A stretch of DNA of 64,000 nt, from the NCBI GenBank assembly GCA_964356415.1, contig CAYHHK010000001.1:38057-102056 (forward strand). Reading direction: 5' to 3'. Both the position numbers and the translations under genes were made by a program. How positions within the stretch are numbered: position 1 is the stretch's first letter; every line of letters begins with the position of its first letter. Shown piece by piece: positions 9,474 through 64,000 of the stretch. Source of the DNA: an uncultured Flavobacteriales bacterium. GTDB lineage: Bacteria > Bacteroidota > Bacteroidia > AKYH767-A > 2013-40CM-41-45. The notes under the pieces were generated by a model that saw only the letters and a list, made by a program, of their open reading frames with translations, did not search any database and was not told the origin of the DNA.

Positions 9474-9505
9474 GCTGTATTAAATTTCATTGAATATCCA
9501 TTTTA

Positions 9506-12298: not shown

Positions 12299-12528
12299 CT
12301 TGAGGTTCTTTCAACTTTAATAATTTTTGCAGGACAAATTATTGCTGCTTTTAAATTCAATTTGTATTCATCTTCATCGACATCCATTCTATATACTCCC
12401 CCTTTTTCTTTGCTCCCGATTAAGTTGCATTTTCCGTCTTTTCTTGATATTCGCCACCTGCTTTTGTTTGCTTCTGCGCATGCATTGCAGCCAATACACT
12501 TGCTGCGATGAAAGTATATCCTAACCAT
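12295..12528 (-). CDS. small [4Fe-4S] (single-cluster-type) ferredoxin
   Basis: 77 aa with CIGCNAC ... CP motifs. Its start overlaps the U32 stop by 1 nt (TAATG) and its stop overlaps the downstream start (ATGA). Confidence 0.75.
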   Translation of the reverse strand: MVRIYFHRSKCIGCNACAEANKSRWRISRKDGKCNLIGSKEKGGVYRMDVDEDEYKLNLKAAIICPAKIIKVERTSR

Positions 12529-42135: not shown

Positions 42136-43587
42136 ATGCGGATTTTACTCACCGGAGCGAATGGCTATATCGGAATGCGTCTTTTACCGGTTTTGGTTGA
42201 AGCAGGACATGATGTTACCTGTATCGTAAGAGACAGTAGCCGCTTTAGGCATAATCCTGATGTGCACAGGAAAATTTCTATTATTGATTTTGATTTTTTG
42301 AGCAATGGAAAATTGAATGAATATTTTTCAGGTATGCAATTTGACGTTGCATACTACCTTATCCATTCTCTCAAGGACACTTTCGTTGCGCTTGAGGAAC
42401 ATGAAAAAAAATCTGCGTTATGTTTTGTTGAAGTAGCCCGCATCACCGGAGTAAAGCAAATCATTTACCTTGGAGGTATCAGCAATGCAAGTGCCCTTTC
42501 GACTCACCTCAATGCGCGAAAAATTGTTAAGGATATTTTACAGAACTCCGGCATTGCGTATACAATTTATGAGGCAGGAATAATCGTTGGATCAGGCAGT
42601 GCTTCGTTTGAAATCATTCGTGATCTGGTAGAAAAAATGCCGGTAATGATAGCTCCAAGATTAATCAATTCTAAATGTCAGCCGATTGCAATCCGAAACG
42701 TTATTCGGTATCTTCTTGATTCAGTCATGAATGATAGATTATTTAATAAAACTTTTGAAATAGGAGGACCTGATGTATTAACCTATAAAGAAATGATGCT
42801 GCAATTTGCAGAAGTTCGTGGTTACAGGCGCTATATTTTTACCATCCCTTTTCTTACGCCCCGGATTTCCTCCTACTGGTTATTCATTGCAACTTCAACT
42901 AATTTTACCATTGCCCGGCAGCTGATGGAGAGTTTGAAAAATGATGTCGTTTGTAAGGATAATTCTATTCGGGAAATTATATCACAGGAATTGATACCAT
43001 ACCGGGAAGCTATTCAAATGGCATTTCAGATGATAAACCAAAATATGGTTTTGTCTTCATGGAAAGATGCTTCATCCAGTACATTGCATCATCTTGAGAT
43101 AAATAATTATGTGCAGGTTCCTGTTAATGGTTGTTTCAGGGATCGTAAGTGGAAGGAGATTCCGGAAGATAGTGTTGAAGAAGTTGCAGACCGATTTTTT
43201 GGAATTGGCGGTATTCATGGATGGTATTACGCCGATATTTTATGGAGGATGCGCGGCATCATTGATAGAATGTTCGGAGGTGTAGGCTTAAGAAGAGGCA
43301 GAAGAAATGAAAACGACTTGCAGCCCGGAGATGCGCTTGATTTCTGGCGGGTAATCCTTGCTGACCGTAAGAATCGCCGCCTGCTTTTATTCGCAGAAAT
43401 GAAAATACCGGGTGAGGCCTGGTTGGAATTTTCAATTGTAAAATTTCATGACCATTATATTTTGAAGCAAACAGCAACCTTCCGGCCGCATGGTATTGCA
43501 GGTCGGAACTACTGGTATGCAATGCTGCCGTTTCATTTTTTTATCTTTAGGAATATGCTTAAGAAAATTGCAAAAAGATCAAACTAA
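42136..43587 (+). CDS. NAD(P)-binding (NmrA/SDR-type) domain protein with a C-terminal DUF2867-like domain
   Basis: It is the only confidently plus-strand gene. The N-terminus is MRILLTGANGYIGMRL, a Rossmann motif. 483 aa. Confidence 0.7.
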   Translation: MRILLTGANGYIGMRLLPVLVEAGHDVTCIVRDSSRFRHNPDVHRKISIIDFDFLSNGKLNEYFSGMQFDVAYYLIHSLKDTFVALEEHEKKSALCFVEVARITGVKQIIYLGGISNASALSTHLNARKIVKDILQNSGIAYTIYEAGIIVGSGSASFEIIRDLVEKMPVMIAPRLINSKCQPIAIRNVIRYLLDSVMNDRLFNKTFEIGGPDVLTYKEMMLQFAEVRGYRRYIFTIPFLTPRISSYWLFIATSTNFTIARQLMESLKNDVVCKDNSIREIISQELIPYREAIQMAFQMINQNMVLSSWKDASSSTLHHLEINNYVQVPVNGCFRDRKWKEIPEDSVEEVADRFFGIGGIHGWYYADILWRMRGIIDRMFGGVGLRRGRRNENDLQPGDALDFWRVILADRKNRRLLLFAEMKIPGEAWLEFSIVKFHDHYILKQTATFRPHGIAGRNYWYAMLPFHFFIFRNMLKKIAKRSN

Positions 43588-44321
43588 ATTCCGGCTCCGA
43601 TACTTTTCCCGCCGTCAACATAAATTGTCTGCCCTGTAATAAACTGATTTTGCACCGAGACAAGAAAGGAAACCAGGTTTGCAATATCTTCAGGCTTACC
43701 CATTGTTTTGGTCGGTTGTGCCTCTATCAGTTTACCAAGAACAGCAGGATTCAATTTTTGTGTCAGGGGTGTATCAATCAATCCCGGTGCAATTGCATTG
43801 ACCAGCACATTGTGTCTTCCGAGTTCCAAAGCAAGTACTCTTGTAAGGGCAACAATCCCGGCTTTTGATGCTGAGTAGTTTGATTGGCCGGCATTTCCCA
43901 GCCATGCACGTGAAGAAATATTTACGATTCGCCCGCTCTTTTGTTCTTTCATGATCCGTGAGGCTTCACGGCACATCAACCAAGTTCCTTTCAGGTTTAC
44001 GTTCAGTACCGAATCAAAATCTTCCATGCTCATGTTCCAGATCATTTTATCTCTGATAATTCCCGCATTGTTAATGAGTACGTCAAGTCTTTTATACTCT
44101 ATCATTATTTTTTCAAAGAGAGATTTCACAATTAGTTCTTTGGTGATATCGGCTTTTGCAAAACTGAGTTTGCTTTTACCGAATTTTGTAAGCAATTTTT
44201 TTCCGTTTGCGGCATCCATATCTACAGCAATTACAAAGTAATCTTCGTCAATCAGTTTTTTCGTAATTGCCTTGCCAATTCCATTGGCCGCTCCGGTGAC
44301 GATGGCTATTTTAGGCTCCAT
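43584..44321 (-). CDS. SDR family oxidoreductase (FabG-like 3-oxoacyl reductase family)
   Basis: TGAANGIGKA cofactor motif, NNAG and catalytic YxxxK (YSASKAG). Confidence 0.85.
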   Translation of the reverse strand: MEPKIAIVTGAANGIGKAITKKLIDEDYFVIAVDMDAANGKKLLTKFGKSKLSFAKADITKELIVKSLFEKIMIEYKRLDVLINNAGIIRDKMIWNMSMEDFDSVLNVNLKGTWLMCREASRIMKEQKSGRIVNISSRAWLGNAGQSNYSASKAGIVALTRVLALELGRHNVLVNAIAPGLIDTPLTQKLNPAVLGKLIEAQPTKTMGKPEDIANLVSFLVSVQNQFITGQTIYVDGGKSIGAGI

Positions 44322-45162
44322 GTAATAGTGGTAGAGTTAAGCATGTTTCCATTTTTATATCCGCTTCATGTGTGTGATTGCTATCTGATCCTGCTTGACC
44401 CGGGTATTTGTCATTTGAACGCGCGACAATTTTCGCAACAATGCCCAAAGCAATTTCGGCCGGTGAATGCTGCCCGATGTCATATCCCATTGGCATGTCA
44501 ACTTCATTTAGTTGGCCCTGCGTTGTGATATTTTGTTGAAGAAATAATTTTCGTGTGACTAAAACTTTTCTCAAGCTTCCAATCATTCCAAGATATGCAT
44601 GCGGCTGATTTATGCTCAGGGCGAGGATTTCCCTGTCGTAGTCATGGGAATGGGTACAGATAACAATGTATGTATTGCTATCAAATGTAATTTTTGAAAA
44701 TGCCTGTTGATGGGGCAGATTGAATTTTGTCACCTCAGAGAGCTGGATTTTCCTGATATATTCCTTCCTTTCATCAACAATAACTATTTCGAAGTCTAAT
44801 TTATCTGCGAAATAGGAAATGTTGCTTCCTATGTGTCCTGCACCGAAAATAATTAGCTGCTTCCTCGGCTTCATGGGTTCAATAAATATTTTCATGCTTC
44901 CGCCGCAACACATCTTCTCTTTAAGAAGTGCATATTCTTCTAGCTTTGGACGGCCCGATTGATATGTTGCAATTGCAATTTCAATCACTTTCTTTTCGAT
45001 ATTTCCTCCTCCGATGGTTCCTGCGCATCTGCCATTTTCCCAAACAAGCATTTTGGCACCTGCCTTCAAAGGTGTGCTGCCACTGGTTTCAACAACTGTG
45101 CAGAGGGTTATGTGCTCTCTTTGTGCCGATGCATTATTGAGTATTTCAGTGAATCGGATCAT
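44311..45162 (-). CDS. xdhC: XdhC/CoxI family molybdoenzyme maturation factor
   Basis: 283 aa with an XdhC N-terminal domain and a Rossmann-like C-terminal domain (LIIFGAGHIG). Confidence 0.8.
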   Translation of the reverse strand: MIRFTEILNNASAQREHITLCTVVETSGSTPLKAGAKMLVWENGRCAGTIGGGNIEKKVIEIAIATYQSGRPKLEEYALLKEKMCCGGSMKIFIEPMKPRKQLIIFGAGHIGSNISYFADKLDFEIVIVDERKEYIRKIQLSEVTKFNLPHQQAFSKITFDSNTYIVICTHSHDYDREILALSINQPHAYLGMIGSLRKVLVTRKLFLQQNITTQGQLNEVDMPMGYDIGQHSPAEIALGIVAKIVARSNDKYPGQAGSDSNHTHEADIKMETCLTLPLLHGA

Positions 45163-45769
45163 GGGTAAAATATTTCCTGTATTCCTCTTTTGTATTGATG
45201 TTTGCGTGTATGTTGCTGTCGTTTGTTTTCAACTGCTCAAAAGGATATTTCTCTAGGATAGCCCTTAGATTGGTTTCCGGCTGTGTTGCTTTTTTGATGT
45301 CCTGTAAAATTTCAGCTGACACCAATACAGGGTGCCCATGTTTGTTATTGTTTTCCGGAACTACATATTTCCCTACCAAAAGTCTCTTCATCATTTGTTC
45401 AAGGAGTGCAGTGGTTGTAAAAGGATTGTCAATGTTCTGAATAAAGGCACTGTTTTTTGTATTGATTGCATTTACTCCAAGTTTTACACTAAAAAATCTG
45501 CCGTCTTCAGGATGTTCATTGATTATAGTGGTAATATTCGTTTTATTCTTAAGCGGTTTGATCAATTCTTTTGCCTTCTTCGCGGTTTCAGTATTTAAGA
45601 CGATCACAATGTCCGGAATATTTGCATCAATATAAACCATTGTCAGTCTTTCAAGAAACGAAATGGATGAATTAAATTTCAGGAAACATTTTGGACTACC
45701 GAAGCGTTCCGATTTGCCTGCTGAGAGTATGATTGCAGAAACAAAGCCGCTGCCGGGTTGTTTATTCAT
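45146..45769 (-). CDS. mocA: MobA-like NTP transferase, MocA-type molybdenum cofactor cytidylyltransferase candidate
   Basis: AIILSAGKSERFGSPK nucleotidyltransferase motif. Adjacency to xdhC suggests MCD-cofactor synthesis for the XDH-family enzyme. Confidence 0.65.
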   Translation of the reverse strand: MNKQPGSGFVSAIILSAGKSERFGSPKCFLKFNSSISFLERLTMVYIDANIPDIVIVLNTETAKKAKELIKPLKNKTNITTIINEHPEDGRFFSVKLGVNAINTKNSAFIQNIDNPFTTTALLEQMMKRLLVGKYVVPENNNKHGHPVLVSAEILQDIKKATQPETNLRAILEKYPFEQLKTNDSNIHANINTKEEYRKYFTHDPIH

Positions 45770-47772
45770 GTTCCTTTATATTCAACATTTCTGCCAAGAG
45801 AACTAAGCCCAATCAAGGCATCTTTGGAAATAAAGATGTTTTTTAAATCATCCAATTCTGAAATATTAAGATCACAACCATTAATCAGTTTTTCAGAAAC
45901 ATATAGGGCAAGAGGAGCATTCCCTTTGACCTTATTGATAATTCTTTCTGCATCTTCTTTGTCGAGATGATCAAGGCTGTATTCCAGGTGGAGCAGGTGG
46001 TCAAGTGAATTGGCCTCGAAAAATGTTTTTATAGCAAGACATCGCTCTTCAATATTCTTAACGCCCAACGGTATGGAATCAATGGCCATCTCTCCCGATA
46101 AAATTTTAGGAATATCTTCTTTCTGAATGATGCTGTCGATAAGACCGATTTCAGAAGCATGGGTTGCAGTTACTTTTTTTCCTGTATATATCAGATACTT
46201 CGCGAGCCCTTTGCCGACTCTTCTTGCTGTGCGTTTGGCACCACCCAGTCCTGGATAGATTCCGATGCCTGTTTCCGGAAATGCCAGTTTGGCGCCCTGA
46301 ACGGAGAGTATGAGATCGGCACACAATGCAAGTTCTAATCCACCGCCAAGCGCCATTCCATTTAATATTACCACAACTTTCTTTTTTGATTTGTCAATTT
46401 TTTCAAAAAGTTGCTGCCCGAAACTTGTGAAGTCAACAATTCTGTCAACTGAATGATTCTTTATGTTGTTTACGAAGAAATTGATATCTGCTCCTGCTAC
46501 AAAAGCTTTTCCTGTACCTGTGATAAAAATGGTTTTGACGGAGGAATAATTTTCTGCCTGCGAGAATTTCTCATTCAATTGATTTATTACTTCTTCATTC
46601 AAGGCATTCAGTTCTTCAGGTCGGTTTATTGTTATGATGGCTATGTCATCTTTATTTTCCAGAAGGACATAATCCATATGCCAGGAAGAAGAGGATACGA
46701 TGGGGATAGCTTCATTGTAGTGTCTTGCATAATTATTCACCAGACGCTTTACTTCTTCTTCTCCGGTTCTTTTCATTAAATCTACGGGACCATATTTCCA
46801 ACGAAGGCCGATTTTGGCACCCTTGTTTAAATCTACTGCAGAGCATACTCCGTCGTTAAGAATCTGAGTGCAGATAAAAAATACACAACCAAGCAGCCGT
46901 TCATTGATTACTTTGTTTGAGACTGGATTCAGTTCTGCTGAATTTAGCTCCGCAATTTTCCAGTTTTCTTTTTTTGCTGCAAGCTGTTCGAGCATGGGTG
47001 CAATTTTGTAGGATGGTCCAAAAAACTCAAGTGTTCGCTGGGCATGCATTGCAATGGAAACTCCGGTAGCATTCATCAATGCGAAAGGCCCCATTCCGAT
47101 TTTGAAAATTTTCATGCAGGCAGAATCAATACTTTCAATTGTTCCAATGTTTTCAGACAATAGCTTTACGGATTCATTCAGCCATGGAACAAAAAAACGA
47201 TTCACCGCAAATCCATAAACGTCTTTGCAGATAATTGCATCCTTACCCGATAGCATACAGAATGTTTTTGCATTCTCTATTGTTGTTGCTGAAGTTTGGG
47301 TTCCGGGAATAATTTCAACGAGGCGGTTTTTTGCTGCGTGATAAAAATAATGCAGGCCGATAAACCGTTCAGGATGTTTCACTGTGGCAGAAAGTTCAGA
47401 TACCGAAAACGAAGAAGTGTTTGTTGCAATGATCGTTTCTTCAGGTACAATTTCTGAAAGCGCTTTAAACAGATCGCTTTTTGCCTTGAAATCTTCGAAT
47501 ATAGCTTCAATGATAATATTGCAGATTTTTAATTCCTGCAGGTCAGCTGTTCCTTTAAGATTGGATAAGGAGTTAATAACTTCCTCCTCTTTAAAAATAT
47601 TTTTTGCCACCCCTTCGTTCAGCATCGTTTTGATACCGCCCAGGCCTTTCTCTACAAACTTCATTTCCTTGTCGGCAAGAATAACTGTAAAGCCTTCCTG
47701 AACAAATTTTTGAGCCAGGGCAGAGCCCATTGTTCCTGCCCCAATTACGCCGACAGTTTTGATATTTTTCAT
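45766..47772 (-). CDS. bifunctional 3-hydroxyacyl-CoA dehydrogenase (N-terminal) / enoyl-CoA hydratase (C-terminal)
   Basis: 668 aa. The N-terminus carries VGVIGAGTMGSALAQ (HADH NAD site) and the C-terminus has a crotonase fold. Its stop overlaps the mocA start (ATGA). Confidence 0.85.
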   Translation of the reverse strand: MKNIKTVGVIGAGTMGSALAQKFVQEGFTVILADKEMKFVEKGLGGIKTMLNEGVAKNIFKEEEVINSLSNLKGTADLQELKICNIIIEAIFEDFKAKSDLFKALSEIVPEETIIATNTSSFSVSELSATVKHPERFIGLHYFYHAAKNRLVEIIPGTQTSATTIENAKTFCMLSGKDAIICKDVYGFAVNRFFVPWLNESVKLLSENIGTIESIDSACMKIFKIGMGPFALMNATGVSIAMHAQRTLEFFGPSYKIAPMLEQLAAKKENWKIAELNSAELNPVSNKVINERLLGCVFFICTQILNDGVCSAVDLNKGAKIGLRWKYGPVDLMKRTGEEEVKRLVNNYARHYNEAIPIVSSSSWHMDYVLLENKDDIAIITINRPEELNALNEEVINQLNEKFSQAENYSSVKTIFITGTGKAFVAGADINFFVNNIKNHSVDRIVDFTSFGQQLFEKIDKSKKKVVVILNGMALGGGLELALCADLILSVQGAKLAFPETGIGIYPGLGGAKRTARRVGKGLAKYLIYTGKKVTATHASEIGLIDSIIQKEDIPKILSGEMAIDSIPLGVKNIEERCLAIKTFFEANSLDHLLHLEYSLDHLDKEDAERIINKVKGNAPLALYVSEKLINGCDLNISELDDLKNIFISKDALIGLSSLGRNVEYKGT

Positions 47773-48557
47773 TTTGAAAGTGCTTTATTATTTTCCCAGA
47801 CGGGTTTTCTTTTCTCTAAAAATGAATTGATGCCTTCATTCGCGTCATGGGTTTCCATCAGTTGCCTTACATACATGCTTTCAAGTTGCTGAAGAAAATT
47901 GGTTAAGACATGATTGAATTTAGCCCGTGATGCTCTTACTGCAAAGCGGAGTGAGGTGGCGCTTTTTGGAATAATTTGATCTGCAATCCATTTTTCAATA
48001 CCTGTATCCATTGTGGCCTTGTCATCAAACAGTTCATTCACCAATCCTATTTGTCTGGCTTCTTCTGCATGAAAGGTCCTTCCGGTAAGAAGTATTTCTT
48101 CTGCCCTTGCCAAGCCGATTTTTTCAGGAAGGATAACTGAAGCAGGAGGGGGGAAGACCCCAAGTACAATTTCGGGCTGCCCGAATCTGGCTGTTTTGTC
48201 GGCAAAAATAAAATTGCACATAATCGCAAGTTCCATTCCGCCACCAAGACATTGTCCTGAAACTTTTGCCAGAGTTGGGATGGACAGATCTCTTAGCGTA
48301 TAAAACAATGCATGAAAATTCTGAAGCATGGTTGAAGCAAATTCTTTTTTATGTTCTTCTACACTTGCCCCAAAGGAAAAATGCTTCCCTGCGCCTTCAA
48401 GAATAATCAGCTTAACCTGGGAATTAGCACGAAATGTATTTAATACAGACTGCAATTCTTCAATCATCACGTGGTCAAGTACATTTCCTTTGCCGTCATC
48501 AAGAATCACATTGATAACAGTATCATTATGGCTGTAAATAATTTTAACTTTTTCCAT
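47769..48557 (-). CDS. enoyl-CoA hydratase/isomerase (crotonase) family; dienoyl-CoA hydratase (Dch)-like candidate
   Basis: 262 aa with crotonase oxyanion-hole segments (LEGAGKHFSFGAS; CLGGGMELA). Function inferred from size and context with had/oah-like genes. Confidence 0.8.
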   Translation of the reverse strand: MEKVKIIYSHNDTVINVILDDGKGNVLDHVMIEELQSVLNTFRANSQVKLIILEGAGKHFSFGASVEEHKKEFASTMLQNFHALFYTLRDLSIPTLAKVSGQCLGGGMELAIMCNFIFADKTARFGQPEIVLGVFPPPASVILPEKIGLARAEEILLTGRTFHAEEARQIGLVNELFDDKATMDTGIEKWIADQIIPKSATSLRFAVRASRAKFNHVLTNFLQQLESMYVRQLMETHDANEGINSFLEKRKPVWENNKALSK

Positions 48558-48559
48558 TG

Positions 48560-49660
48560 TCAGGTATTAACTTTTTGGTATTGTGGCGAGATCGTTCTGT
48601 GCATTTCATCATTCCATTCATTTCCCTGCGCCAGGAGTTGACGCAGTTTGATGAAATCTACTTCACGGTCCTCTTTTGGTCCGTCATTAAAGGCTTTGAA
48701 TCCAGCCTTCGCTTCTGTCATCATATTTAGTGCAAGCCACTCGCGGCTGCCTTCCTTGTTTTTATCCCAGTGTTCGAGTTTGAATTTGCGAACTTCACTG
48801 ATGGTTTTTGTCATGCAGTTGGGGAATGTGTAAAGTAGTTTGGTGATCAGGTTATTTACCGCCTTGTCCAGCATCGATAAATCTGTTTCGGCAGTTGCTA
48901 AAATCTCTTTTGCTTTTTTCAATTCATCGCCTGATTTGGAAGTTCCGAAAATGACACGTCCGAATTCATTAGTGATTTTATCTGTTACCACCATTGGATT
49001 TGGAGTAAACTGACCATTCACTTTTAGCACAGGAACTATTTCTGTAATAACCCCAAAATAATATGCCTGATGTGCGGTCCACGGTTCACAAAGCGTGAGA
49101 GACATCATTGCCCGCTCAACGCCTACAAAAAGCGGAAGGAAATCAGTGGCGCCTCCAATGGGTGCACTCCCGTGTTTTGGACCTGCCTGGCCGAATCTTG
49201 CCATGTCACTGGCTATGCTGAAGTCGCAGGCCATTCCTATTTCCTGGCCACCGCCAATACGCATTCCGTTAACACGATTGATTACAGGTTTTTCGCATTT
49301 CAATATTGCACTTACCATGTCATTGAACAACCGCATATATTGTGAGTACTCCTGCGGGTTTCCGGCATAATACTCGGCATACTCTTTTGTGTTTCCGCCT
49401 GTACAAAATGCTTTGTCACCAACTGCAGTAAAAACAACTGCAACTACACTCCTGTCGTTTGATGCTTCTCCAAATGCCAGAATGATTTCTTTTACTGCCG
49501 AAGTCGTGTATGAATTATATTGTTTTGGATTATTAAGATAAATCCAGGCATTGTATAACCCATCTATGGGATTGCCATTTTTGTCAAGGCAGTTCTTTTT
49601 CTCAAAAATGATTTCTTTATATACTGCTGTGACGATGTTGTGATTTTTTAGGTTGCTCAT
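48560..49660 (-). CDS. crotonase-superfamily protein with a C-terminal extension; 6-oxocyclohex-1-ene-1-carbonyl-CoA hydrolase (Oah/BamA)-like candidate
   Basis: ~366 aa from the ATG at 49660 (MSNLKNH...). Crotonase core (AFCTGGNTKEY; GMRIGGGQEIGMACDF) plus a ~100 aa C-terminal extension. The longer track ORF would overlap the upstream T9SS gene. Confidence 0.7.
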   Translation of the reverse strand: MSNLKNHNIVTAVYKEIIFEKKNCLDKNGNPIDGLYNAWIYLNNPKQYNSYTTSAVKEIILAFGEASNDRSVVAVVFTAVGDKAFCTGGNTKEYAEYYAGNPQEYSQYMRLFNDMVSAILKCEKPVINRVNGMRIGGGQEIGMACDFSIASDMARFGQAGPKHGSAPIGGATDFLPLFVGVERAMMSLTLCEPWTAHQAYYFGVITEIVPVLKVNGQFTPNPMVVTDKITNEFGRVIFGTSKSGDELKKAKEILATAETDLSMLDKAVNNLITKLLYTFPNCMTKTISEVRKFKLEHWDKNKEGSREWLALNMMTEAKAGFKAFNDGPKEDREVDFIKLRQLLAQGNEWNDEMHRTISPQYQKVNT

Positions 49661-49664
49661 TGTT

Positions 49665-50852
49665 CTAGTTTGTAATTTGTAATTTAAATAAATATTGTTT
49701 TTGGCCTCTCGTTGCTGAAAGTAAATACAACCCCGGTGATAATTCAGAAACATCAATTTGCTTGGAATTCTTTGCTGTCACAACAGGGATTCCTCCAAAT
49801 GAATAAATTTTAATATCTGAGATGCAGTTGTCGGGAGAGTTGATAAATACACAGTTTGTGGATGGGTTCGGATAAATACTTAATTGTTCATTCTGATTTT
49901 CATTTATTGCATCAAGTATGCACCAGGTGATTCCGGAAGATATTGTTCCAAAATTGAAGTCAATGAATGGTGTGGATATTGGCGGGGTTGAGTCGCAAAA
50001 ATCAAAATCTCCCTTCATCCAGCCCCAATTGACCGAGCTGTCGGACACTTGAAAGCTTCCTGTTGCTGTTCCTTTAACGGTATCTGCATTATACCAGCTG
50101 TCGTTCACAATTATTCTTCCGTTGTTATCAAGCGTTGCATTGTGTTGAACTGAATCAGCATTCAGCAGGCTTTTATATAGGATGAAATACCCTGAAGAAA
50201 GGTTCTTAAATATTTCAGTATTCCAGGAACTGTGCAAACAAGTAATGCTATCTGAATTGGTAAAGGTTCCAAGATTTGTAAGATCGGTAAATGTGAGGGT
50301 ATTATTATTTGTGTATTCCCCGGTATTTGTAAATTGATTGTATGTGCAAATCCCATTATTTGTAAAAGTTCCGCCGGTAGTGATACTGTCAATATCCAGG
50401 AAACTGCCGTCGTTGATTATAGCGCCTGTGCTGTATAGACTGTCAATGTTTTGAATGGTTCCTGTATTGGTGAAGTTCACATAGCTCATCAGCGAACGGG
50501 CTGTAAGTGTCCCACTATTCGAAAATGAGCCTGCCTGTACAAACAAGTAGCGTATATCAAGTGTACCATGATTTGTCAGTGTTCCTCCATTTACCAGTAT
50601 GTCCCGTGAAGAATTGTTTTCTATTAGTGATCCTCCTGCATTAATGGTGATTCCTCCGGAAGGGAGATACCAGCCGGTGTCAAGTGCGACAGCGTGGTTG
50701 ATGGTAACTGTAAAGCCGGGCAATGGTATGCAGGTACAACTCCATGTCAACGGGTTCATCCAATTTCCATTTTGAACAGAAGTTGCATTCTGCGAAACAC
50801 CGGAAAAACAAATGGAGAATAAAGCCAGAAGGGTGCTAAGAAATTTGCGCAT
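49665..50852 (-). CDS. secreted beta-helix-like repeat protein with a T9SS C-terminal sorting domain, embedded in the catabolic operon
   Basis: Signal peptide MRKFLSTLLALFSICFSGVSQ, many FTNxGT-type repeats, and C-terminal SIYPNPSTNCVFIN...GLYLLS...LFKLQI. Confidence 0.75.
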   Translation of the reverse strand: MRKFLSTLLALFSICFSGVSQNATSVQNGNWMNPLTWSCTCIPLPGFTVTINHAVALDTGWYLPSGGITINAGGSLIENNSSRDILVNGGTLTNHGTLDIRYLFVQAGSFSNSGTLTARSLMSYVNFTNTGTIQNIDSLYSTGAIINDGSFLDIDSITTGGTFTNNGICTYNQFTNTGEYTNNNTLTFTDLTNLGTFTNSDSITCLHSSWNTEIFKNLSSGYFILYKSLLNADSVQHNATLDNNGRIIVNDSWYNADTVKGTATGSFQVSDSSVNWGWMKGDFDFCDSTPPISTPFIDFNFGTISSGITWCILDAINENQNEQLSIYPNPSTNCVFINSPDNCISDIKIYSFGGIPVVTAKNSKQIDVSELSPGLYLLSATRGQKQYLFKLQITN

Positions 50853-50858
50853 GAAGGT

Positions 50859-51968
50859 TTATTTGAAATCGGGAATAAGAACTGATCGTTTTGAATATTT
50901 ATGCTCAAGAGTATTTCTAAATACTTCATTTATTTTCGACATAGGAAAAGTTTGCACAAACTGTGATATGTTCAGTTTGCCATTGGATATCAGGTCTAAA
51001 ACCTCGGGATATAGTTCTGCCCTGCATCCCCATGTGCCGATGAGTTTGGCGTCATATGCCATCAGGTTGCTTAGCCGGACTTCTGTTTTATCCATTGTGA
51101 AGCCAACAATTGAAAGCGTTGAAGCGTACGTGATAAGGTTAAAAGCCAGATCCTGACCTGCTTTTGTTCCGCTGAATTCAAATATTTTCCATCTGAATTT
51201 TGGCGCATTGATTTCCTTAGCAAGCGCTTTTACTTTTTCTTTGATTGTTTTCTGATCAAGGCTTTTGATATTCAAAACCGCATCTATGCCATTTTCTTTT
51301 GCAGTGGTCAGCTTCGCATCATTGATATCCAGCGCAATTACTTTAGCTCCGAATATTTTTGCGATCAGTGCTCCATAAACTCCTACGCCTCCAACACCGA
51401 TAACAATGGCAAGATCACCCGGTTCCAGTTCTGATTTTTTAATGACCTGATAAGGTGTTGAAATTGCATCAGCAATAACCGCGAGATGTTCGAGTGGATA
51501 TTTATTCAAAACACTTTTTGGAACTTCACATAGAAATTTAGAGGGTACTATTATATGTGAGGAAAATCCTCCCTGGAAATCGTTTCCGGGCATTAATTGA
51601 TTTCTGCAAATATTGCTTCTCCCATTTTTACAGAACTCGCAATCACCACAAGGCAACACGGCAGGAATGATTACTGCTTTATCAAGCCATTTATTATCAC
51701 CGGTAATTACTGTCCCGCTGATCTCATGACCTAACGTCAGAGGAAGTGCATGCTTCGTCTGTACTCCTGCATGCCAAAAGCTGATGTCTGTATGACACAC
51801 ACCGCATCCTGCAATTTTCACAATGACCTCTCCGTCTTTTAATACCGGTAGTGGGTTTTCAATAAGTTGAAATTCCTTGTTGAGTTCAACCATTTGCCAT
51901 TGATGCATTTTTTCGGTTGAAGTAACTTTTGCAGAAGCAAGCTTGATTTTATCAAATGTTTCAGGCAT
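50859..51968 (-). CDS. zinc-dependent medium-chain alcohol dehydrogenase family; 6-hydroxycyclohex-1-ene-1-carbonyl-CoA dehydrogenase (Had/BamQ)-like candidate
   Basis: 369 aa with a catalytic Zn motif (GCGVCHTD), a structural Zn Cys4 (CGDCEFCKNGRSNIC) and a GxGxxG Rossmann motif (IGVGGVGVYG). Confidence 0.8.
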   Translation of the reverse strand: MPETFDKIKLASAKVTSTEKMHQWQMVELNKEFQLIENPLPVLKDGEVIVKIAGCGVCHTDISFWHAGVQTKHALPLTLGHEISGTVITGDNKWLDKAVIIPAVLPCGDCEFCKNGRSNICRNQLMPGNDFQGGFSSHIIVPSKFLCEVPKSVLNKYPLEHLAVIADAISTPYQVIKKSELEPGDLAIVIGVGGVGVYGALIAKIFGAKVIALDINDAKLTTAKENGIDAVLNIKSLDQKTIKEKVKALAKEINAPKFRWKIFEFSGTKAGQDLAFNLITYASTLSIVGFTMDKTEVRLSNLMAYDAKLIGTWGCRAELYPEVLDLISNGKLNISQFVQTFPMSKINEVFRNTLEHKYSKRSVLIPDFK

Positions 51969-51970
51969 AA

Positions 51971-53233
51971 CTATAGGTTTTTGTTTTCAAAAAGGATAGC
52001 TGTTCCCTGTCCGCCGCCAATGCATGCAGATGCGATCCCATATTTTACTTTTCTGCGTATCATTTCTTTAGAGATGGTGAGAGACAACCGCAATCCTGTG
52101 GCGGCAAGCGGATGCCCTATTGCAATGGCTCCTCCGTTTACATTCAGTTTGGTTCTGTCAATTCCCAGTTCCTTTTCGCAACCGATTACCTGCGCCGAGA
52201 ATGCTTCGTTAATTTCAAGCAGACCAATATCGGAGATATTCAATCCAGTCATTTCAAGCAAAAGTCTGATTGCCGGAACCGGGCCCAATCCCATGTATTT
52301 CGGATCGATGCCACAACTTGCGCCTCCGATTATTTTTGATATTGGTTTTAAATTCTTTTGTGAAACAGTTTGCAAATTTGCAATAACTGCAGCGGCTGCG
52401 CCATCAACAATTCCACTGCAATTTCCTGCCGTAAGAACTCCCACTTTGTCAAACACTGTAGGCAGTTTACCCAGCGCATCCAGCGTTGTGGCACGGATAT
52501 GTTCATCAATTGAAAAGGAGCTTGTTCCTTTTGGGAGAAAAGCTTTTCTTGATTTAAGGCCTTCAATATTAAACGTGGCGGACTGCAACGATGCGATTTC
52601 CTCAGAGAAGATTTTATTTGTTGTGGCATCAATTGCTCTTTGAAAAGAGGTCATTGCATATTCATCGCAGTCATTTCTTGAGATATCATATTTCTTTGCA
52701 ACATTTTCGGCTGTATATCCCATCGGATATCCGGCGGCAGTATCGTCCAGAGCTTCCCAAAGCATATCCTTAAATACAGGCCTGCCTAAGGGATATCCCA
52801 TTCTGTTTCCAAAACTCACAGTAGGGGAGAGTGACATATTTTCTGTGCCAACACAGAGAACTGTGTCTGCTTTTCCCAGAGTGATTTGTTCTGCACCTGT
52901 AATAATTGTTTCAAAGCCTGATCCGCAAATCCTTTGCACCATTAATGCCGGAACTTCAGCCGGGATTCCGCTAAAGAGAGATATGTGGCGTGGAAGAAAA
53001 TAGGAGTCTGTTGAACTTTGTCCGATATTGGCTGCAATCACCTGATCAATTTCATTAGGTTTCACTCCTGATTTTTGCAGCGTGGATATTGCGGCAAAAA
53101 TCCCTAAATCGGTAGGAGAGATTTGGGAAAGCGAACCACAGTATTTTCCAAAAGGTGTCCTTGTTCCGTCGACGAGATAAATGTCGTCGAATATTATTCC
53201 TATTCCTTTATTTATATGATGGTAGGCTTTCAC
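51971..53233 (-). CDS. acetyl-CoA C-acyltransferase (degradative thiolase)
   Basis: RTPFGKY, catalytic Cys (VQRICGSGFE), NVNGGAIAIGHPLAATG and C-terminal CIGGGQG. Apparent GTG start at 53233 overlaps the upstream stop (GTGA). Confidence 0.85.
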   Translation of the reverse strand: MKAYHHINKGIGIIFDDIYLVDGTRTPFGKYCGSLSQISPTDLGIFAAISTLQKSGVKPNEIDQVIAANIGQSSTDSYFLPRHISLFSGIPAEVPALMVQRICGSGFETIITGAEQITLGKADTVLCVGTENMSLSPTVSFGNRMGYPLGRPVFKDMLWEALDDTAAGYPMGYTAENVAKKYDISRNDCDEYAMTSFQRAIDATTNKIFSEEIASLQSATFNIEGLKSRKAFLPKGTSSFSIDEHIRATTLDALGKLPTVFDKVGVLTAGNCSGIVDGAAAAVIANLQTVSQKNLKPISKIIGGASCGIDPKYMGLGPVPAIRLLLEMTGLNISDIGLLEINEAFSAQVIGCEKELGIDRTKLNVNGGAIAIGHPLAATGLRLSLTISKEMIRRKVKYGIASACIGGGQGTAILFENKNL

Positions 53234-55131
53234 TGAATTTCAGTTTTATTTGAAACGGAAGTTTCCGTTTTTAGAAAATGCTGTTTGGCAATGAGCGCTG
53301 CTCCCAATGATGCCATGAATTGTGGATTTTCAACCGATTCAACTTCTTGCTTAAGTTTTAATCCAAGAATATCTCTCAGGTATGGATGGTAGGCGATCAC
53401 TCCTCCAATGAGATAAATGGGGATTCCGGACATGATGCGCAGTTTGGCAACCCGGTTAACAATGGAGAGATAGACGCCTTTTGAAATATCTTCAACACTC
53501 ATGCCTTCTATGAGCCATTTCATGATTTCTGTCTTGGCGAATACGGTACAAAAACTGTTCAGCTCAGTTTTATTGTTGCTGCGGGCAGCAAGAAGGCTCA
53601 TTTCACTGATGTTGAGGTCGGCCCGTTCTGCAATTTCAGTAATGAATGACCCTGTTCCTGCAGCACATTTGTCATTGAGAAAGAAATTCTCTACCTCACT
53701 GTTGATGCCGCAATGGATCACCTTGATGTCTTCTCCTCCTATGTCTATAATGTTCTTTGCACCGGGATAAGAAAAGGAGACCCCTTCTGCCGCACAATTA
53801 ATTTCTGTTTTTACAATATCTGCGTCAGGAAAATTTTTGCGTCCATAACCGGTGGCGCAGCTGGCCTTAATATTAAACTCACTACGGATTGCACTCATTA
53901 CATGCCGCACTCCAATCTTATCGCGGTTGAGTGTTTTAAGTGCTAATTTGAATGCCACTTTCGAATTGCTGTCGAGGACGATAAATTTTGTGTAAGATGA
54001 GCCGAGGTCAACACCCAAAAAATATTCTCCTGAACCTGATTTCTCTCCTTTAATGACTAATCCATTCCTAGCTTTTTGGCCACCGGCACCGCTAAATGAC
54101 TTGCCGATCAATGATGGATCAAGTGATTTCATAAATGCACTGTTGCTGCGAGAGGTCATTGCCTTTACCATATTTGTAACAGCAAGATTGATGGGAGTGC
54201 GGATATAGTGCTTGCGGCCGTACTCAACTATTTTTCCATTCATGAAATCAATTTCAGTTTGCCTGTTGTTTATCAGGTCAACTGCAAGTGAAGGGAAATG
54301 GTCCCCTGCTTTTTTAAGGTAACGCAAACATTTGCGAATGAATTCATCTTCAAATATTATTTTTTCCGCTTTTGCTACTTCCAGTGCCTCTTCAATTACC
54401 AGTTCGATAAGTTCTACGGTATCGGGTATCTCCATTGCTTCCTTTATGGTGAGCTTACCGATTCCGCACAGTGCTGACAAGGAGGAATTCAGGATTGTTT
54501 TTTCCCAGATCTGTTTCAGTAATTCAAAGGATGAGATGAATTTGGTATTCAGATTGACTTTGTTCAGCAAGTCACTTATTTGCTGAGCAGCGCCGGCTTT
54601 TGAATCATCGAGGGAAGCGATGTAATTGGGCGGATTAAAAAATGTGACTTTTACAATATTCGGGGCATTCAGGTTGCCGGCAAAGTTGATCACAAGGCGT
54701 AATGTTTTACTTTCACCAATTCCTGAGGCAAGAATCTGCTCGACATCAATGCCGTTTTGTGCACTTACAAAAATGGTTTTATCAAAATTAAGATTCATCA
54801 CCTGTTCGACGAATGCTGATGTTTGATATCCTTTTATACTCGCTATAATGATGTCAGGGTTGAAATTTCGTAATTCGGTGAGGCTGCTGTAGATGTTATC
54901 AACGAAAATATGTTTCTGTATTGCTCCGTCCAGTTTTATTCCTTCTTTCCTGATTAAATTAATTTTAATTTTATCAAAATCGCATACCGCCACATTACAT
55001 CCGGCTTCTTTCAGATGAGCAGAAAGAATGAGCCCGACAGGTCCCAGGCCTACCACAGCTACTTTTTGTTCTGCCTTTTCATTTCCTGAAGGATCTGGAG
55101 TTTGTGATCTGATATTATTTTCTTCACTCAT
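53230..55131 (-). CDS. fusion protein: N-terminal 2-dehydropantoate-2-reductase (ApbA/PanE)-like NAD(P)H oxidoreductase domain :: C-terminal BadF/BadG/BcrA/BcrD (HgdC-type) ATPase/activase domain
   Basis: 633 aa. The N-terminus carries VAVVGLGPVGLILSAHL plus KPR-like motifs (~aa 20-330). The C-terminus has YFLGVDLGSSYTKFIVLD and CAAGTGSFITEIAE, the acetate/sugar-kinase-fold activase signatures. Confidence 0.75.
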   Translation of the reverse strand: MSEENNIRSQTPDPSGNEKAEQKVAVVGLGPVGLILSAHLKEAGCNVAVCDFDKIKINLIRKEGIKLDGAIQKHIFVDNIYSSLTELRNFNPDIIIASIKGYQTSAFVEQVMNLNFDKTIFVSAQNGIDVEQILASGIGESKTLRLVINFAGNLNAPNIVKVTFFNPPNYIASLDDSKAGAAQQISDLLNKVNLNTKFISSFELLKQIWEKTILNSSLSALCGIGKLTIKEAMEIPDTVELIELVIEEALEVAKAEKIIFEDEFIRKCLRYLKKAGDHFPSLAVDLINNRQTEIDFMNGKIVEYGRKHYIRTPINLAVTNMVKAMTSRSNSAFMKSLDPSLIGKSFSGAGGQKARNGLVIKGEKSGSGEYFLGVDLGSSYTKFIVLDSNSKVAFKLALKTLNRDKIGVRHVMSAIRSEFNIKASCATGYGRKNFPDADIVKTEINCAAEGVSFSYPGAKNIIDIGGEDIKVIHCGINSEVENFFLNDKCAAGTGSFITEIAERADLNISEMSLLAARSNNKTELNSFCTVFAKTEIMKWLIEGMSVEDISKGVYLSIVNRVAKLRIMSGIPIYLIGGVIAYHPYLRDILGLKLKQEVESVENPQFMASLGAALIAKQHFLKTETSVSNKTEIQ

Positions 55132-55148
55132 TTTATTTTCTTCAAAGG

Positions 55149-56399
55149 CTATTTAACATTGATCTGTGCTCGCTGCGCTTGTGGATTTCGATGCGAAGCG
55201 TGTTGAATTTGTTCAATAAAGGCTTCAATCTTTGTAATGCTTTGTCCTTCCGAGAAAAATCTCAGGTCACACAAGTCACCTTCAATTACAAGATACGGAA
55301 TCCCTGTTTCGTCTTTTAACCTTTTTGGCAAGCCGAACTTCGCATTTGAATTGTTGAAGCAGGTTTTTGAATCATGAAATATGATGCCATCACAAGAGAA
55401 TTCCTTCAGCCATTTTGCCAACATTTTCATTTTAGCTTTTTCACTCCTGTTGATGAAAATATTTGTATAGGCAAGCGCCGATGATTTAAATGGATCTTTT
55501 TCATCAAACTCATCAAATATCCAGCTGTTGCAATACGTAGATGCAACTACACCGGTGTTGTTCTGAATGAATAAATCAGAAAGCATTCTGTTCTTTCCCC
55601 AGATGGGCATACCATCCCAGAAGATGCGTGATTGTTCTTTTTCAACAACTCCGGTTTTCTTCAAAATATTTTCCTGTAGCTCTTTTAAAAGTGTCTGGTA
55701 ATATTGTTTTGCTGTTTCTGTACCCCGCAACACCACAATGGGCCCCATATGTATGGTTGCATCAAAAAAACTGAGTGGTGCAGGTGATGCTTTAGACGTC
55801 CTTAAAACCTGTTGCCAAAGGAGGGTGGCCTCTTTGCTGAGCAATAAGGTTTCCCTGAAGGAATCAATGTCAAATTGTTTCCCACTGGCTTTTTCACATG
55901 CAGGAATAATATTTTTATGCTGCTGAACACCTGTGGTAATTATTTCCTCTGAAACATCATCCACGTATCTTGGCGGGGTTATACCTGTAATAGGGCAGTT
56001 AAATTCTTTGGCATAAAAGTTAAACCAATCCTGAACTTCCCTGCATTGATTGGTATTGTAAACTATCAGGTCGGGTTTAGGAACGCCTTTCATTCCATAG
56101 TGAGATTGTAAAGGCGTTTTGCCGCTGAGGTAAGAACCGATGTCACTCGTCGTGTATGAGCATATGTGGTTTGAGAAGCCAAGTTTACCCGCTTCAGGAA
56201 TGAAATCGGTAGCGGTACGTGTGGCACCAAGGAGTGCACCGTGATTTTCAGGAAAATATACATTGAACCCAAAAGATCTTAGCAGTTCGGCTGGCCCAAC
56301 GCTTGTACACCATGCGATTTTTCGTTCACCGGTTTCCAATGATCGAAAATATTCGCTCATCACTGCTTTTAATAACTGTGTTGATTTGATTTCGTACAT
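55149..56399 (-). CDS. 2-hydroxyacyl-CoA dehydratase / benzoyl-CoA reductase B/C family subunit (HgdB/BcrC-like), stand-alone
   Basis: HGD-D family features (conserved Cys and C-terminal ...CDLRFF...). The track start at 56471 is TTG. ATGs lie at 56441 and 56399; the latter abuts the ligase stop (TGAtATG) without overlap. Confidence 0.7.
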   Translation of the reverse strand: MYEIKSTQLLKAVMSEYFRSLETGERKIAWCTSVGPAELLRSFGFNVYFPENHGALLGATRTATDFIPEAGKLGFSNHICSYTTSDIGSYLSGKTPLQSHYGMKGVPKPDLIVYNTNQCREVQDWFNFYAKEFNCPITGITPPRYVDDVSEEIITTGVQQHKNIIPACEKASGKQFDIDSFRETLLLSKEATLLWQQVLRTSKASPAPLSFFDATIHMGPIVVLRGTETAKQYYQTLLKELQENILKKTGVVEKEQSRIFWDGMPIWGKNRMLSDLFIQNNTGVVASTYCNSWIFDEFDEKDPFKSSALAYTNIFINRSEKAKMKMLAKWLKEFSCDGIIFHDSKTCFNNSNAKFGLPKRLKDETGIPYLVIEGDLCDLRFFSEGQSITKIEAFIEQIQHASHRNPQAQRAQINVK

Positions 56400-56400
56400 A

Positions 56401-58149: not shown

Positions 58150-58160
58150 TTTGATTATTA

Positions 58161-59021
58161 TTAAACAGCCAGTGCCTGTTTTTCCAATAACTTTTTATGG
58201 CGATAGCCTCCCCACAAGGCTGCTCCAAGGGCGCCGGCATAAATGGCATCGGGATGCGTTTTTATTTCAAATTTTTTTCCTGTTTCTATTAATTGCTCTT
58301 CAATTGCCTGAATCATTCCTGTGTTTAGTGCCATGCCACCTGTAAGAAAAATAGGGGATGCTGCCTTTAATGAACTCATAAGTTTGATAATTCGGGAGGC
58401 GATGGAAAGATGAATTCCTTTGATGATGTCCGGTGTAGAAATCCCCCTTGATACCATGTTGATTACATCCGTTTCTGCCAATACAGCACATATCCCTGAG
58501 GAAATTTCGGGTTGGTTTGCCTTCATTGACACCTCTCCCACTTCCTCAATGGACAATCCTAAATAGCGCGAAATATTTTCAAGAAACTGGCCTGAACCGG
58601 AAGCGCATTGTCCTGTCATTTTGTAATCTTCCACACGCGCATTCTCACTGATGCGGATTGCCCGCACGTATAAAGCACCAAGATCAACAACGGTTCTTGC
58701 TTCAGGAAAAAAATAATTGGCTCCTCTCGCATGGGTAGTCATTCCATAAAAGTGGCCCCGCTTTTTTTTAACTAAATCGCCTTCTCCTGTGGAGGCAAGG
58801 TATGCAATGTCTTCATATTGAAGATTGTGTTTTGTAAGCATTGCCTGCACCATCTCATCAGCGACTTGTGTAGGGTTGCGTTTCCTTATTTTTTCTGTGT
58901 GCTTGTCATTGATGATGGGATGGTCAGAATAGTCCATTAGTACTAACTTTATGAAGTTGCTTCCGACGTCTATTCCCATTGTGAAATAGGATTTTGACAT
59001 ATTTGAATTATTTTTTATCAT
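58161..59021 (-). CDS. BadF/BadG/BcrA/BcrD-family ATPase, short form (BcrD/BadG-like subunit)
   Basis: 286 aa with the MGIDVGSNFIKLVL ATPase phosphate-1 motif and CASGSGQFLE. It is the last gene of the four-gene reductase cluster. Confidence 0.8.
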   Translation of the reverse strand: MIKNNSNMSKSYFTMGIDVGSNFIKLVLMDYSDHPIINDKHTEKIRKRNPTQVADEMVQAMLTKHNLQYEDIAYLASTGEGDLVKKKRGHFYGMTTHARGANYFFPEARTVVDLGALYVRAIRISENARVEDYKMTGQCASGSGQFLENISRYLGLSIEEVGEVSMKANQPEISSGICAVLAETDVINMVSRGISTPDIIKGIHLSIASRIIKLMSSLKAASPIFLTGGMALNTGMIQAIEEQLIETGKKFEIKTHPDAIYAGALGAALWGGYRHKKLLEKQALAV

Positions 59022-59106
59022 TATTGTTCGCTTATCTTCTGTTAGAAAATCATTAGGTGGCTTTTTTGGGAAAGTACAATATTGTGATTAAATTAATATA
59101 TGATAT

Positions 59107-59910: not shown

Positions 59911-59913
59911 TGG

Positions 59914-61323: not shown

Positions 61324-61347
61324 TTATTGTTTCCTTTTTAAAAGTGT

Positions 61348-62649: not shown

Positions 62650-62704
62650 TTTGTAGTTTTTTCTGTGACTTAATATTTGTGAGATATCATCTTGATATTA
62701 TTAT

Positions 62705-63868: not shown

Positions 63869-64000
63869 ATGGCATTATATTTTTACGAAGAAAGTTATTA
63901 ATCATAAGATTGAATATGATGCCGGTCAAATAAAAAAATACGAAAAAATACTTTCTGTGATATTCTGAATTTATGGAGCAATCTTGAATTAAATTGAAGT

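Follow-up and report, generated by a model that had tools for sequence, protein, structure and literature searches.

A 64,000-nt stretch from an uncultured Flavobacteriales bacterium (the window) carries a long run of minus-strand genes that very probably represents, in one operon, the ring hydration, oxidation and hydrolytic opening part of a Thauera-type anaerobic benzoyl-coenzyme A (CoA) pathway. Its core is a predicted dienoyl-CoA hydratase (Dch), a hydroxyacyl-CoA dehydrogenase (Had) and a ring-opening hydrolase (Oah, or BamA), encoded together with a thiolase and a fusion of 3-hydroxyacyl-CoA dehydrogenase (HADH) and enoyl-CoA hydratase (ECH). Protein families were tested with NCBIfam models and their curated equivalog cut-offs, and domains were assigned with Pfam. 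Gene order was compared across the 80 best loci out of 595 Oah relatives found in a scan of GTDB species representatives; synteny counts over these 80 are lower bounds, many of the contigs being truncated, and single loci are cited by number (L001 and so on) where they have to be told apart.

The set was first proposed in an initial annotation made from the DNA letters, whose five open reading frames (ORFs) all have the sizes given there and all lie on the minus strand, as follows.

51971-53233, minus strand: thiolase, 420 amino acids (aa)
50859-51968, minus strand: had, 369 aa, zinc-dependent medium-chain dehydrogenase/reductase (Zn-MDR), 6-hydroxycyclohex-1-ene-1-carbonyl-CoA dehydrogenase
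49665-50852, minus strand: secreted protein sorted by the type IX secretion system (T9SS), 395 aa, a passenger between had and oah
48560-49660, minus strand: oah/bamA, 366-aa crotonase extended at its C-terminus, 6-oxocyclohex-1-ene-1-carbonyl-CoA hydrolase
47769-48557, minus strand: dch, 262-aa crotonase, cyclohexa-1,5-diene-1-carbonyl-CoA hydratase-like
45766-47772, minus strand: HADH::ECH fusion, 668 aa, 3-hydroxyacyl-CoA dehydrogenase N-terminal and enoyl-CoA hydratase C-terminal

Four of the five genes lie in the range 47769-53233 to which the annotation had confined them, and the HADH::ECH gene falls just outside it; the 395-aa gene, which is in that range, had gone unmentioned. The set was also said to adjoin the reductase genes, which is true only loosely: three genes, coding for an ApbA::activase fusion, an HGD-D protein and an AMP-forming ligase, stand between the thiolase gene and bcrD. 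At most junctions of the long run the spacing is -4 to +6 nt, and we infer that the operon is co-transcribed. Promoter and terminator scans of 44001-64000 returned 60 candidates (52±7.4 in shuffled sequence) and 15 candidates (18.5±4.4 in shuffled sequence), respectively; both counts equal chance and say nothing on operon boundaries. The mechanical ORF for Oah (398 aa, TTG start) is over-extended, public gene calls and the family alignment both beginning at MSNLKNH and giving 366 aa. Exact copies of the window's proteins were also found on contigs from metagenomes (ERZ4201063/4 and several Logan runs), and an NCBI record has them too. The family matches of the set (E = 3.9e-177, 4.5e-136, 1.4e-67 and 7.7e-115) are far beyond chance.

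The firmest assignment is that of the 366-aa crotonase, for which the initial annotation had suggested an Oah-like identity. It scored 588.7 bits against TIGR03200 (cut-off 464.45), the match covering residues 4-354 of 366, with far lower scores for the other crotonase models BadI (TIGR03210, 122.9) and MenB (119.9), and it is 63-65% identical to orthologs that stand beside bcrCBAD in proteobacterial metagenome-assembled genomes (MAGs). The bamA marker primers SP9 and ASP1, whose sequences are given in PMC3794298, have target regions ~300 bp apart. Both peptides underlying them, QYNSYTT and GQEIGM, are present in Oah, 292 bp apart; the DNA at the primer sites carries 4/22 mismatches (49501-49522) and 2/18 mismatches (49231-49248), a consequence of AT-rich codon use over conserved peptides. 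As read from the sequence, the second catalytic Glu is replaced in the manner of MenB and BadI (GQAGPKHGS).

The call of a Had-like protein was likewise borne out. The 369-aa Zn-MDR scored 453.5 bits against TIGR03201 (cut-off 338.65; next family 141), and against the solved 6-hydroxycyclohex-1-ene-1-carbonyl-CoA dehydrogenase (PDB 7QUL/7QUY) it gave 372 bits with 47% identity over 352 columns, whereas the best ordinary alcohol dehydrogenase in the PDB reached 134 bits. Its Zn-ligand motifs (GCGVCHTD, GHE and CxxCxxC...C) align with those of the solved enzyme.

The identity of the 262-aa crotonase as Dch is sustained by model choice and by synteny, and falls short at the curated cut-off. TIGR03189 is its best model at 227.7 bits, with a 78-bit margin over the next family (149), but the cut-off is 292.5. 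That threshold appears to be tuned to Proteobacteria, because the proteobacterial Dch of L084 scores 395.6 whereas five syntenic orthologs from non-proteobacterial phyla score 199.6-265.6, all below the cut-off. In alignment, the protein and its orthologs share a 7-residue deletion, the motif FSFGASVEEH and both catalytic Glu residues (in GGGMELA and GQPEI). Identity to the syntenic Dch of L084 is 43-44%, versus 22% to the ECH domain of the neighboring fusion, and a gene for it lies directly downstream of oah in 63/80 loci. Given the best-model margin, the synteny, the shared deletion, the motif and the catalytic Glu residues, we accept the protein as a divergent Dch ortholog that stays under the curated threshold. 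A PDB sequence search with Oah and Dch found no close relative of either, the best matches being MenB at 106 bits and ECH at 117 bits. At the level of sequence, then, the family membership of Oah and Had, the clade membership of Dch and the conserved gene order are established.

Upstream of the ring-opening genes, the window encodes what, from its family scores, is probably a Thauera-type class I ATP-dependent benzoyl-CoA reductase.

62705-63868, minus strand: bcrC, TIGR02263 455.8 (cut-off 421.15)
61348-62649, minus strand: bcrB, TIGR02260 692.3 (cut-off 486.55)
59914-61323, minus strand: bcrA, TIGR02259 439.3, under the cut-off of 578
58161-59021, minus strand: bcrD, TIGR02261 317 (cut-off 312.85)

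Models of the Bzd type fit much less well than those of the Bcr type (BzdO 100.8 versus BcrB 692.3; BzdQ 117 versus BcrD 317).

The pathway can be proposed as follows, with enzyme activities that we infer throughout. BcrCBAD would reduce benzoyl-CoA to cyclohexa-1,5-diene-1-carbonyl-CoA, to which Dch would add water to give 6-hydroxycyclohex-1-ene-1-carbonyl-CoA. NAD+-dependent oxidation by Had would yield the 6-oxo compound, and Oah would then add water and cleave the ring, releasing 3-hydroxypimelyl-CoA. The steps to this point rest on tested family membership. Most likely, the HADH domain of the fusion and the thiolase would convert 3-hydroxypimelyl-CoA to glutaryl-CoA and acetyl-CoA; oxidation and decarboxylation of glutaryl-CoA would fall to an enzyme outside the genes identified here, after which crotonyl-CoA could be taken to acetyl-CoA by the two domains of the fusion together with the thiolase. 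The ECH domain is superfluous for 3-hydroxypimelyl-CoA oxidation and would serve crotonyl-CoA hydration after the decarboxylation of glutaryl-CoA. The complete route from the dienoyl-CoA to glutaryl-CoA put forward in the initial annotation thus holds as far as 3-hydroxypimelyl-CoA and is plausible as far as glutaryl-CoA, and its claimed completeness is not supported.

For the thiolase and the fusion, it is context that suggests the substrates. The thiolase scored 383.9 against TIGR01930 (cut-off 240.55), a model at subfamily level only, and would from its context be a 3-oxopimelyl-CoA and acetoacetyl-CoA thiolase. The fusion contains the Pfam domains 3HCDH_N, 3HCDH and ECH_1, its ECH domain keeps both catalytic Glu residues in sequence, and the FadB, FadJ and PaaH equivalogs all score far below their cut-offs; context would have it act on 3-hydroxypimelyl-CoA and later on crotonyl-CoA and 3-hydroxybutyryl-CoA. 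Its gene overlaps dch by 4 nt, and the same order occurs in at least 28 related loci; the thiolase gene lies directly upstream of had in 38/80. Nine loci have the thiolase-had-oah arrangement with no benzoyl-CoA reductase or HGD-D genes within 10 kb, and the thiolase is therefore tied to ring cleavage and not to the reductase. A FabG-like short-chain dehydrogenase/reductase (SDR) encoded at the end of the operon is a candidate alternative 3-hydroxypimelyl-CoA dehydrogenase.

The acyl-CoA dehydrogenase (ACAD) at 1514-2644 had been offered as a possible glutaryl-CoA dehydrogenase, a role that the data do not support. Its best NCBIfam match is the acryloyl-CoA reductase AcrC (305.4), and it reaches 272.7 against the Desulfococcus-type non-decarboxylating glutaryl-CoA dehydrogenase model, short of the cut-off of 470. 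In the PDB it resembles a short-chain ACAD (1JQI, 269 bits; 3MPI, 222). It lies 45 kb from the set and is syntenic in 1/80 loci, at 31% identity. An ACAD beside the cluster in L056 is equally ambiguous as to glutaryl-CoA dehydrogenase. Beside the window's ACAD, at 299-1498 on the minus strand, lies a gene for a divergent thiolase-like protein (TIGR01930 163.5, below 240.55). Homologs of this protein (68-76% identity) are encoded directly beside had-oah-dch in L029, L038, L043, L070 and L073, and in L029 the homolog stands at the position of the regular thiolase.

Several points weigh against the assignment to a Thauera-type benzoyl-CoA pathway. Dch and BcrA both stay under their curated cut-offs, BcrA nevertheless being syntenic and matching TIGR02259 best. 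The thiolase and the HADH::ECH fusion are placed at generic family level only, the specific equivalog models giving no assignment, and no glutaryl-CoA dehydrogenase can be named in the window. The operon itself contains no ferredoxin gene, and it is interrupted by a secreted-protein gene and an acyltransferase gene. Specificity for benzoyl-CoA versus its methyl-, hydroxy- or fluoro-analogues is unreadable from sequence. Finally, all 80 best Oah loci come from MAGs or uncultured bins, with no isolate among them.

The genes between bcrD and the thiolase gene (53230-58149) form a conserved module specific to the Fibrobacterota-Chlorobiota-Bacteroidota (FCB) group.

56401-58149, minus strand: AMP-forming CoA ligase
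55149-56441, minus strand: lone HGD-D protein whose nearest match is the (R)-2-hydroxyisocaproyl-CoA dehydratase alpha subunit (HadB), with no beta partner
53230-55131, minus strand: fusion of a ketopantoate-reductase-like (ApbA) domain and a BcrAD/BadFG activase

The HGD-D gene is present in 44 of the 80 loci, together with the fusion in 26 and with the ligase as well in 19; the proteobacterial and Gemmatimonadota loci among them lack the module. In the Bacteroidales locus L056 its parts are unfused, and an ADP-forming acyl-CoA synthetase takes the ligase's place. The fusion belongs to a family of 819 relatives; among the best 120, nearly every one that carries a source name is labeled '2-dehydropantoate 2-reductase', and FCB MAGs are among those named. 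Alignment of the ApbA domain with 2EW2 shows that the Lys/Asn/Glu motifs of the ketopantoate reductase (KPR) family are retained. At E<=1e-40 the PDB offers no relative of the CoA ligase. A reverse hydroxyglutarate role for the module (glutaconyl-CoA to 2-oxoglutarate) is disfavored because the partner ligase is AMP-forming and works toward CoA-ester synthesis.

This module gives rise to the alternative that deserves most attention, which we regard as unlikely but worth entertaining: the thiolase and the HADH::ECH fusion could belong, wholly or additionally, with the ligase, the HGD-D protein and the ApbA::activase fusion in an upper feeder route. Reduction of phenylpyruvate or 4-hydroxyphenylpyruvate would give the (R)-2-hydroxy acid, whose CoA ester the radical enzyme would dehydrate to cinnamoyl-CoA or 4-coumaroyl-CoA, and beta-oxidation would shorten the product to benzoyl-CoA or 4-hydroxybenzoyl-CoA; such a route is compatible with the identities of Dch, Had and Oah. 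The module genes overlap or abut each other and the thiolase gene and are conserved in FCB clusters, including the unfused parts in L056. The likeness of the HGD-D protein to the (R)-2-hydroxyisocaproyl-CoA dehydratase alpha subunit and the retained KPR-family motifs fit it too, as does the ECH domain, which an enoyl-CoA intermediate needs and 3-hydroxypimelyl-CoA oxidation does not, although crotonyl-CoA hydration accounts for that domain too. The same gene set includes a 4-hydroxybenzoyl-CoA-reductase-like enzyme and MocA/XdhC maturation genes, a tryptophanase/tyrosine phenol-lyase gene precedes bcrC, and an aminotransferase gene flanks the operon in L092. To our knowledge, all characterized 2-hydroxyacyl-CoA dehydratases are alpha-beta heterodimers, whereas only one HGD-D gene is present here. 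The nine loci free of module genes within 10 kb link the thiolase to ring cleavage instead, and the ligase may simply be a benzoate-CoA ligase. A Bacteroidota MAG has also been reported (PMC8099898) to express peptidases and peptide uptake systems together with enzymes of benzoyl-CoA degradation, which would suit a feeder route from amino acids. In that case the single-subunit, presumably homodimeric HGD-D protein, the activase fused to a D-2-hydroxyacid-dehydrogenase-like domain and the ligase might together make up a new ATP-driven radical enzyme system for aryl-lactyl-CoA, a suggestion that we make tentatively and consider rather improbable. If it were true, it would constitute a respiratory route of Phe/Tyr degradation distinct from the phenylacetate/phenylglyoxylate route, and the thiolase and the HADH::ECH fusion would gain a dual or different role.

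The remaining alternatives concern the ring-opening genes themselves. The set could be specialized for a substituted analogue (methyl-, hydroxy- or halobenzoyl-CoA) and not for benzoyl-CoA, a paralogous W/X/Y set of this kind being known from the Azoarcus mbd cluster. The substrate range cannot be fixed from the genes, the Dch and BcrA proteins are divergent, MbdO is among the relatives of the HGD-D family, and promiscuity of Dch and Oah toward fluoro-analogues is documented (PMC5742626). We nevertheless think specialization quite improbable: the window has a single dch-had-oah set, as is also the norm in related loci, and Oah and Had clear by a wide margin the cut-offs that were derived from benzoyl-CoA enzymes. 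A Rhodopseudomonas-type pathway, in which BadK, BadH (an SDR) and BadI act on cyclohex-1-ene-1-carboxyl-CoA, might be thought of given that Oah falls in the MenB/BadI branch of crotonases and that an SDR gene ends the operon. It is effectively refuted by the family scores, the BadI model giving Oah a small fraction of what its own model gives, while Had is a Zn-MDR and the reductase is Thauera-type; we hold it to be very improbable. Least credible of all, to the point of being negligible, is a chance placement of ordinary fatty-acid beta-oxidation, MenB and alcohol dehydrogenase genes near reductase-like genes. Pfam does see generic domains alone in the set (ECH_1, ADH_N, ADH_zinc_N and thiolase), and close relatives of Oah or Dch are missing from the PDB, but the equivalog models beat the MenB, ECH and alcohol dehydrogenase families by large margins, the Had crystal structure matches, and synteny with the reductase genes is conserved across phyla; together these refute it. 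The initial annotation had itself named placement of its crotonases among MenB or fatty-acid enzymes, and of its dehydrogenase among ordinary alcohol dehydrogenases, as the outcome that would speak against it, and the Oah, Had and Dch models clearly win.

Thauera-type benzoyl-CoA ring degradation thus stays the preferred reading, and the two interruptions of its operon can be described further. The 395-aa protein has a signal peptide, GT(L/F)TN-like repeats and a Por_Secre_tail domain (42.1 bits in Pfam; TIGR04183, 36.8 bits), and its gene is separated from had and oah by 4-6 nt. A homolog at the had-oah junction was found only in L009 among the 80 loci (52% identity). In most of these loci the had-oah gap is 10-40 nt, and the inserts found elsewhere at this junction (at about 8.7-10.0 kb in each locus) are unrelated to the window's T9SS gene.

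had-oah junction, L024: a different T9SS-tailed protein
had-oah junction, L016: a signal-peptide protein
had-oah junction, L057 and L062: similar ~210-aa proteins of unknown function
had-oah junction, L064: an unrelated 411-aa protein

Because it has one homolog only and other lineages carry unrelated inserts, the T9SS gene is a passenger with no part in the pathway, and the junction resembles a hot spot that has received insertions repeatedly. The second insert separates bcrA from bcrD, which in most related loci are ~5-45 nt apart or overlap slightly.

59107-59910, minus strand: PlsC-like 1-acylglycerol-3-phosphate acyltransferase, inserted between bcrA and bcrD

Downstream of the HADH::ECH gene, the operon ends in three further genes.

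45146-45769, minus strand: MocA-like cytidylyltransferase
44311-45162, minus strand: XdhC-like maturation factor
43584-44321, minus strand: FabG-like SDR, the last gene

The same trio ends the operon in L007, L008, L010, L012, L026, L029 and L030, and L035 has MocA and the SDR there; SDR genes also lie within the had-oah-dch clusters of Gemmatimonadota and in the Myxococcales locus L082. The two maturation genes imply that an enzyme with the molybdopterin cytosine dinucleotide cofactor belongs to the pathway. A 4-hydroxybenzoyl-CoA-reductase-like molybdenum enzyme is encoded elsewhere in the window.

12528-13769, minus strand: U32-family protein, 413 aa
12295-12528, minus strand: ferredoxin-like ORF, 77 aa, with CIGCNAC...CP, overlapping the start of the molybdoenzyme gene
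9506-12298, minus strand: fused gamma-alpha subunit of the molybdenum enzyme, 930 aa, 4-hydroxybenzoyl-CoA-reductase-like, xanthine-dehydrogenase family
8523-9473, minus strand: FAD/beta subunit of the molybdenum enzyme, 316 aa

Its alpha part scored 827.7 against TIGR03194 (cut-off 994.55; next family 567.7) and its beta subunit 200.1 against TIGR03195 (cut-off 404.55; next family 119), and a Cys-rich insertion (C119...C156) in the FAD subunit resembles the [4Fe-4S] loop of HcrB. Genes for pyruvate:ferredoxin oxidoreductase, a U32 protein and a small ferredoxin lie upstream of bcrC in L091, where a 4-hydroxybenzoyl-CoA-reductase-like enzyme follows the SDR. Because the U32 protein, the ferredoxin and the molybdenum enzyme directly flank the same operon there, the set at 8523-13769 looks functionally linked to the operon and displaced from it by ~30 kb, and the window looks like a compact FCB gene set split by a block of nitrate reductase and molybdenum cofactor (Moco) genes. 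The 77-aa ferredoxin-like protein may donate electrons to the reductases.

14113-41934, minus strand: Moco/nar block with moaA, moaC/B, moaE, moeA, moeB, mobA, narGHI and a YtfE/ScdA-like gene

This block, whose Moco biosynthesis set is full, also contains two major facilitator superfamily transporter genes, two cytochrome c genes and a gene for a beta-class carbonic anhydrase. The narGHI and cytochrome c genes point to a host that respires nitrate, in keeping with a benzoyl-CoA reductase of the ATP-dependent class I. Searches for Rfam families and tRNAs across the whole window gave no match.

Some other genes near these may be recorded. Beyond the window's right end (L087, 8406-9782), 218 nt upstream of bcrC and on the same strand, lies a gene for a 458-aa lyase of the tryptophanase/tyrosine phenol-lyase family, which scores 672.8 against the tryptophanase subfamily model and is under the cut-offs of both the TnaA and the tyrosine phenol-lyase equivalogs. 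Hydantoinase A/B-family subunits are encoded at 3107-6956 (minus strand), nearest to CapA/CapB caprolactamase and then to acetophenone carboxylase, all under cut-offs; beside them, at 7097-8464 (minus strand), is a gene for a TrpB-like (TrpB2) pyridoxal phosphate enzyme (736.6 bits).

The 80 best loci are mostly from Bacteroidota (Sphingobacteriales, Chitinophagales, Flavobacteriales, Saprospiraceae and Bacteroidales) and Ignavibacteria, the remainder coming from Marinimicrobia/Fidelibacterota, Gemmatimonadota and a few Proteobacteria. Had, Oah and Dch are encoded together in 55/80, with the thiolase upstream as well in 38 and the HADH::ECH fusion downstream in 28; the proteobacterial loci L084 and L086 have the order had-oah-dch-bcrCBAD. 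A 2024 survey found bcr or bam genes in 0/37 representative FCB genomes and deemed the trait rare there (PMC10936416). A 2021 study (PMC8099898) remarked as an aside that a Flavobacteriales MAG, from a benzene culture that reduces nitrate, expresses enzymes for degrading benzoyl-CoA anaerobically, along with peptidases and peptide uptake systems. The pathway itself is thus not new, and the literature already offers a glimpse of it in Bacteroidota; its breadth and the conserved architecture of the FCB operon seem to have received little description.

The biochemistry of anaerobic aromatic ring degradation by way of class I benzoyl-CoA reductase is established for a few Proteobacteria. Here the same Dch-Had-Oah chemistry is predicted for a conserved operon across many uncultured Bacteroidota, Ignavibacteria and other FCB lineages, so that a familiar pathway meets a little-studied host, its gene order recurring in dozens of uncultured Bacteroidota/FCB genomes. 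The mismatches at the bamA primer sites mean that surveys by polymerase chain reaction may under-count the Bacteroidota lineage. The operon also provides a concrete setting for the uncharacterized HGD-D/activase module, whose fusion protein databases label '2-dehydropantoate 2-reductase'; the module is the more unusual item of the set and the one most worth pursuing.

Several characterized systems can be compared with the gene set. The module resembles the clostridial systems HadBC with HadI and FldBC with FldI in its HadB-like HGD-D protein, its BcrAD/BadFG activase and its D-2-hydroxyacid-dehydrogenase-type domain. It differs from them in having one HGD-D subunit, an activase fused to a reductase domain, and a CoA ligase in place of a CoA transferase, and in lying inside a respiratory aromatic-degradation operon. 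With BadK/BadH/BadI of Rhodopseudomonas palustris the window shares a ring-opening hydrolase from the MenB/BadI branch of crotonases; it departs from that system in the score of this hydrolase (BadI 122.9 versus Oah 588.7) and in having a Zn-MDR, not an SDR, as its dehydrogenase. Like the bzd genes of Azoarcus/Aromatoleum (BzdNOPQ, BzdW/X/Y), the window's genes combine the reductase, the trio, a CoA ligase and an SDR-type gene in one operon, but its reductase scores far lower with Bzd-type than with Bcr-type models.

The BamR-BamQ-BamA proteins of Geobacter metallireducens and Syntrophus belong to the same hydratase, dehydrogenase and hydrolase families as the window's trio and share the bamA primer peptides. 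These obligate anaerobes use the ATP-independent class II reductase BamB-I, whereas the window's reductase is class I, and the primer sites in its DNA are mismatched (4/22 and 2/18).

The benzoyl-CoA pathway genes of Thauera aromatica are another close counterpart. In the window the lower-pathway genes lie downstream, not upstream, of bcrCBAD, no fdx follows bcrD, and the operon includes the thiolase, the HADH::ECH fusion and the extra ligase/HGD-D/ApbA::activase module, as well as two unrelated inserts (the T9SS protein and the PlsC-like acyltransferase). Dch and BcrA are divergent and under their cut-offs, and the host phylum is Bacteroidota. Common to both are the Had, Oah and Dch families and a class I ATP-dependent reductase of BcrCBAD type; the internal had-oah-dch order, as in the proteobacterial L084 and L086, and the respiratory nitrate reductase of the window's host complete the likeness.

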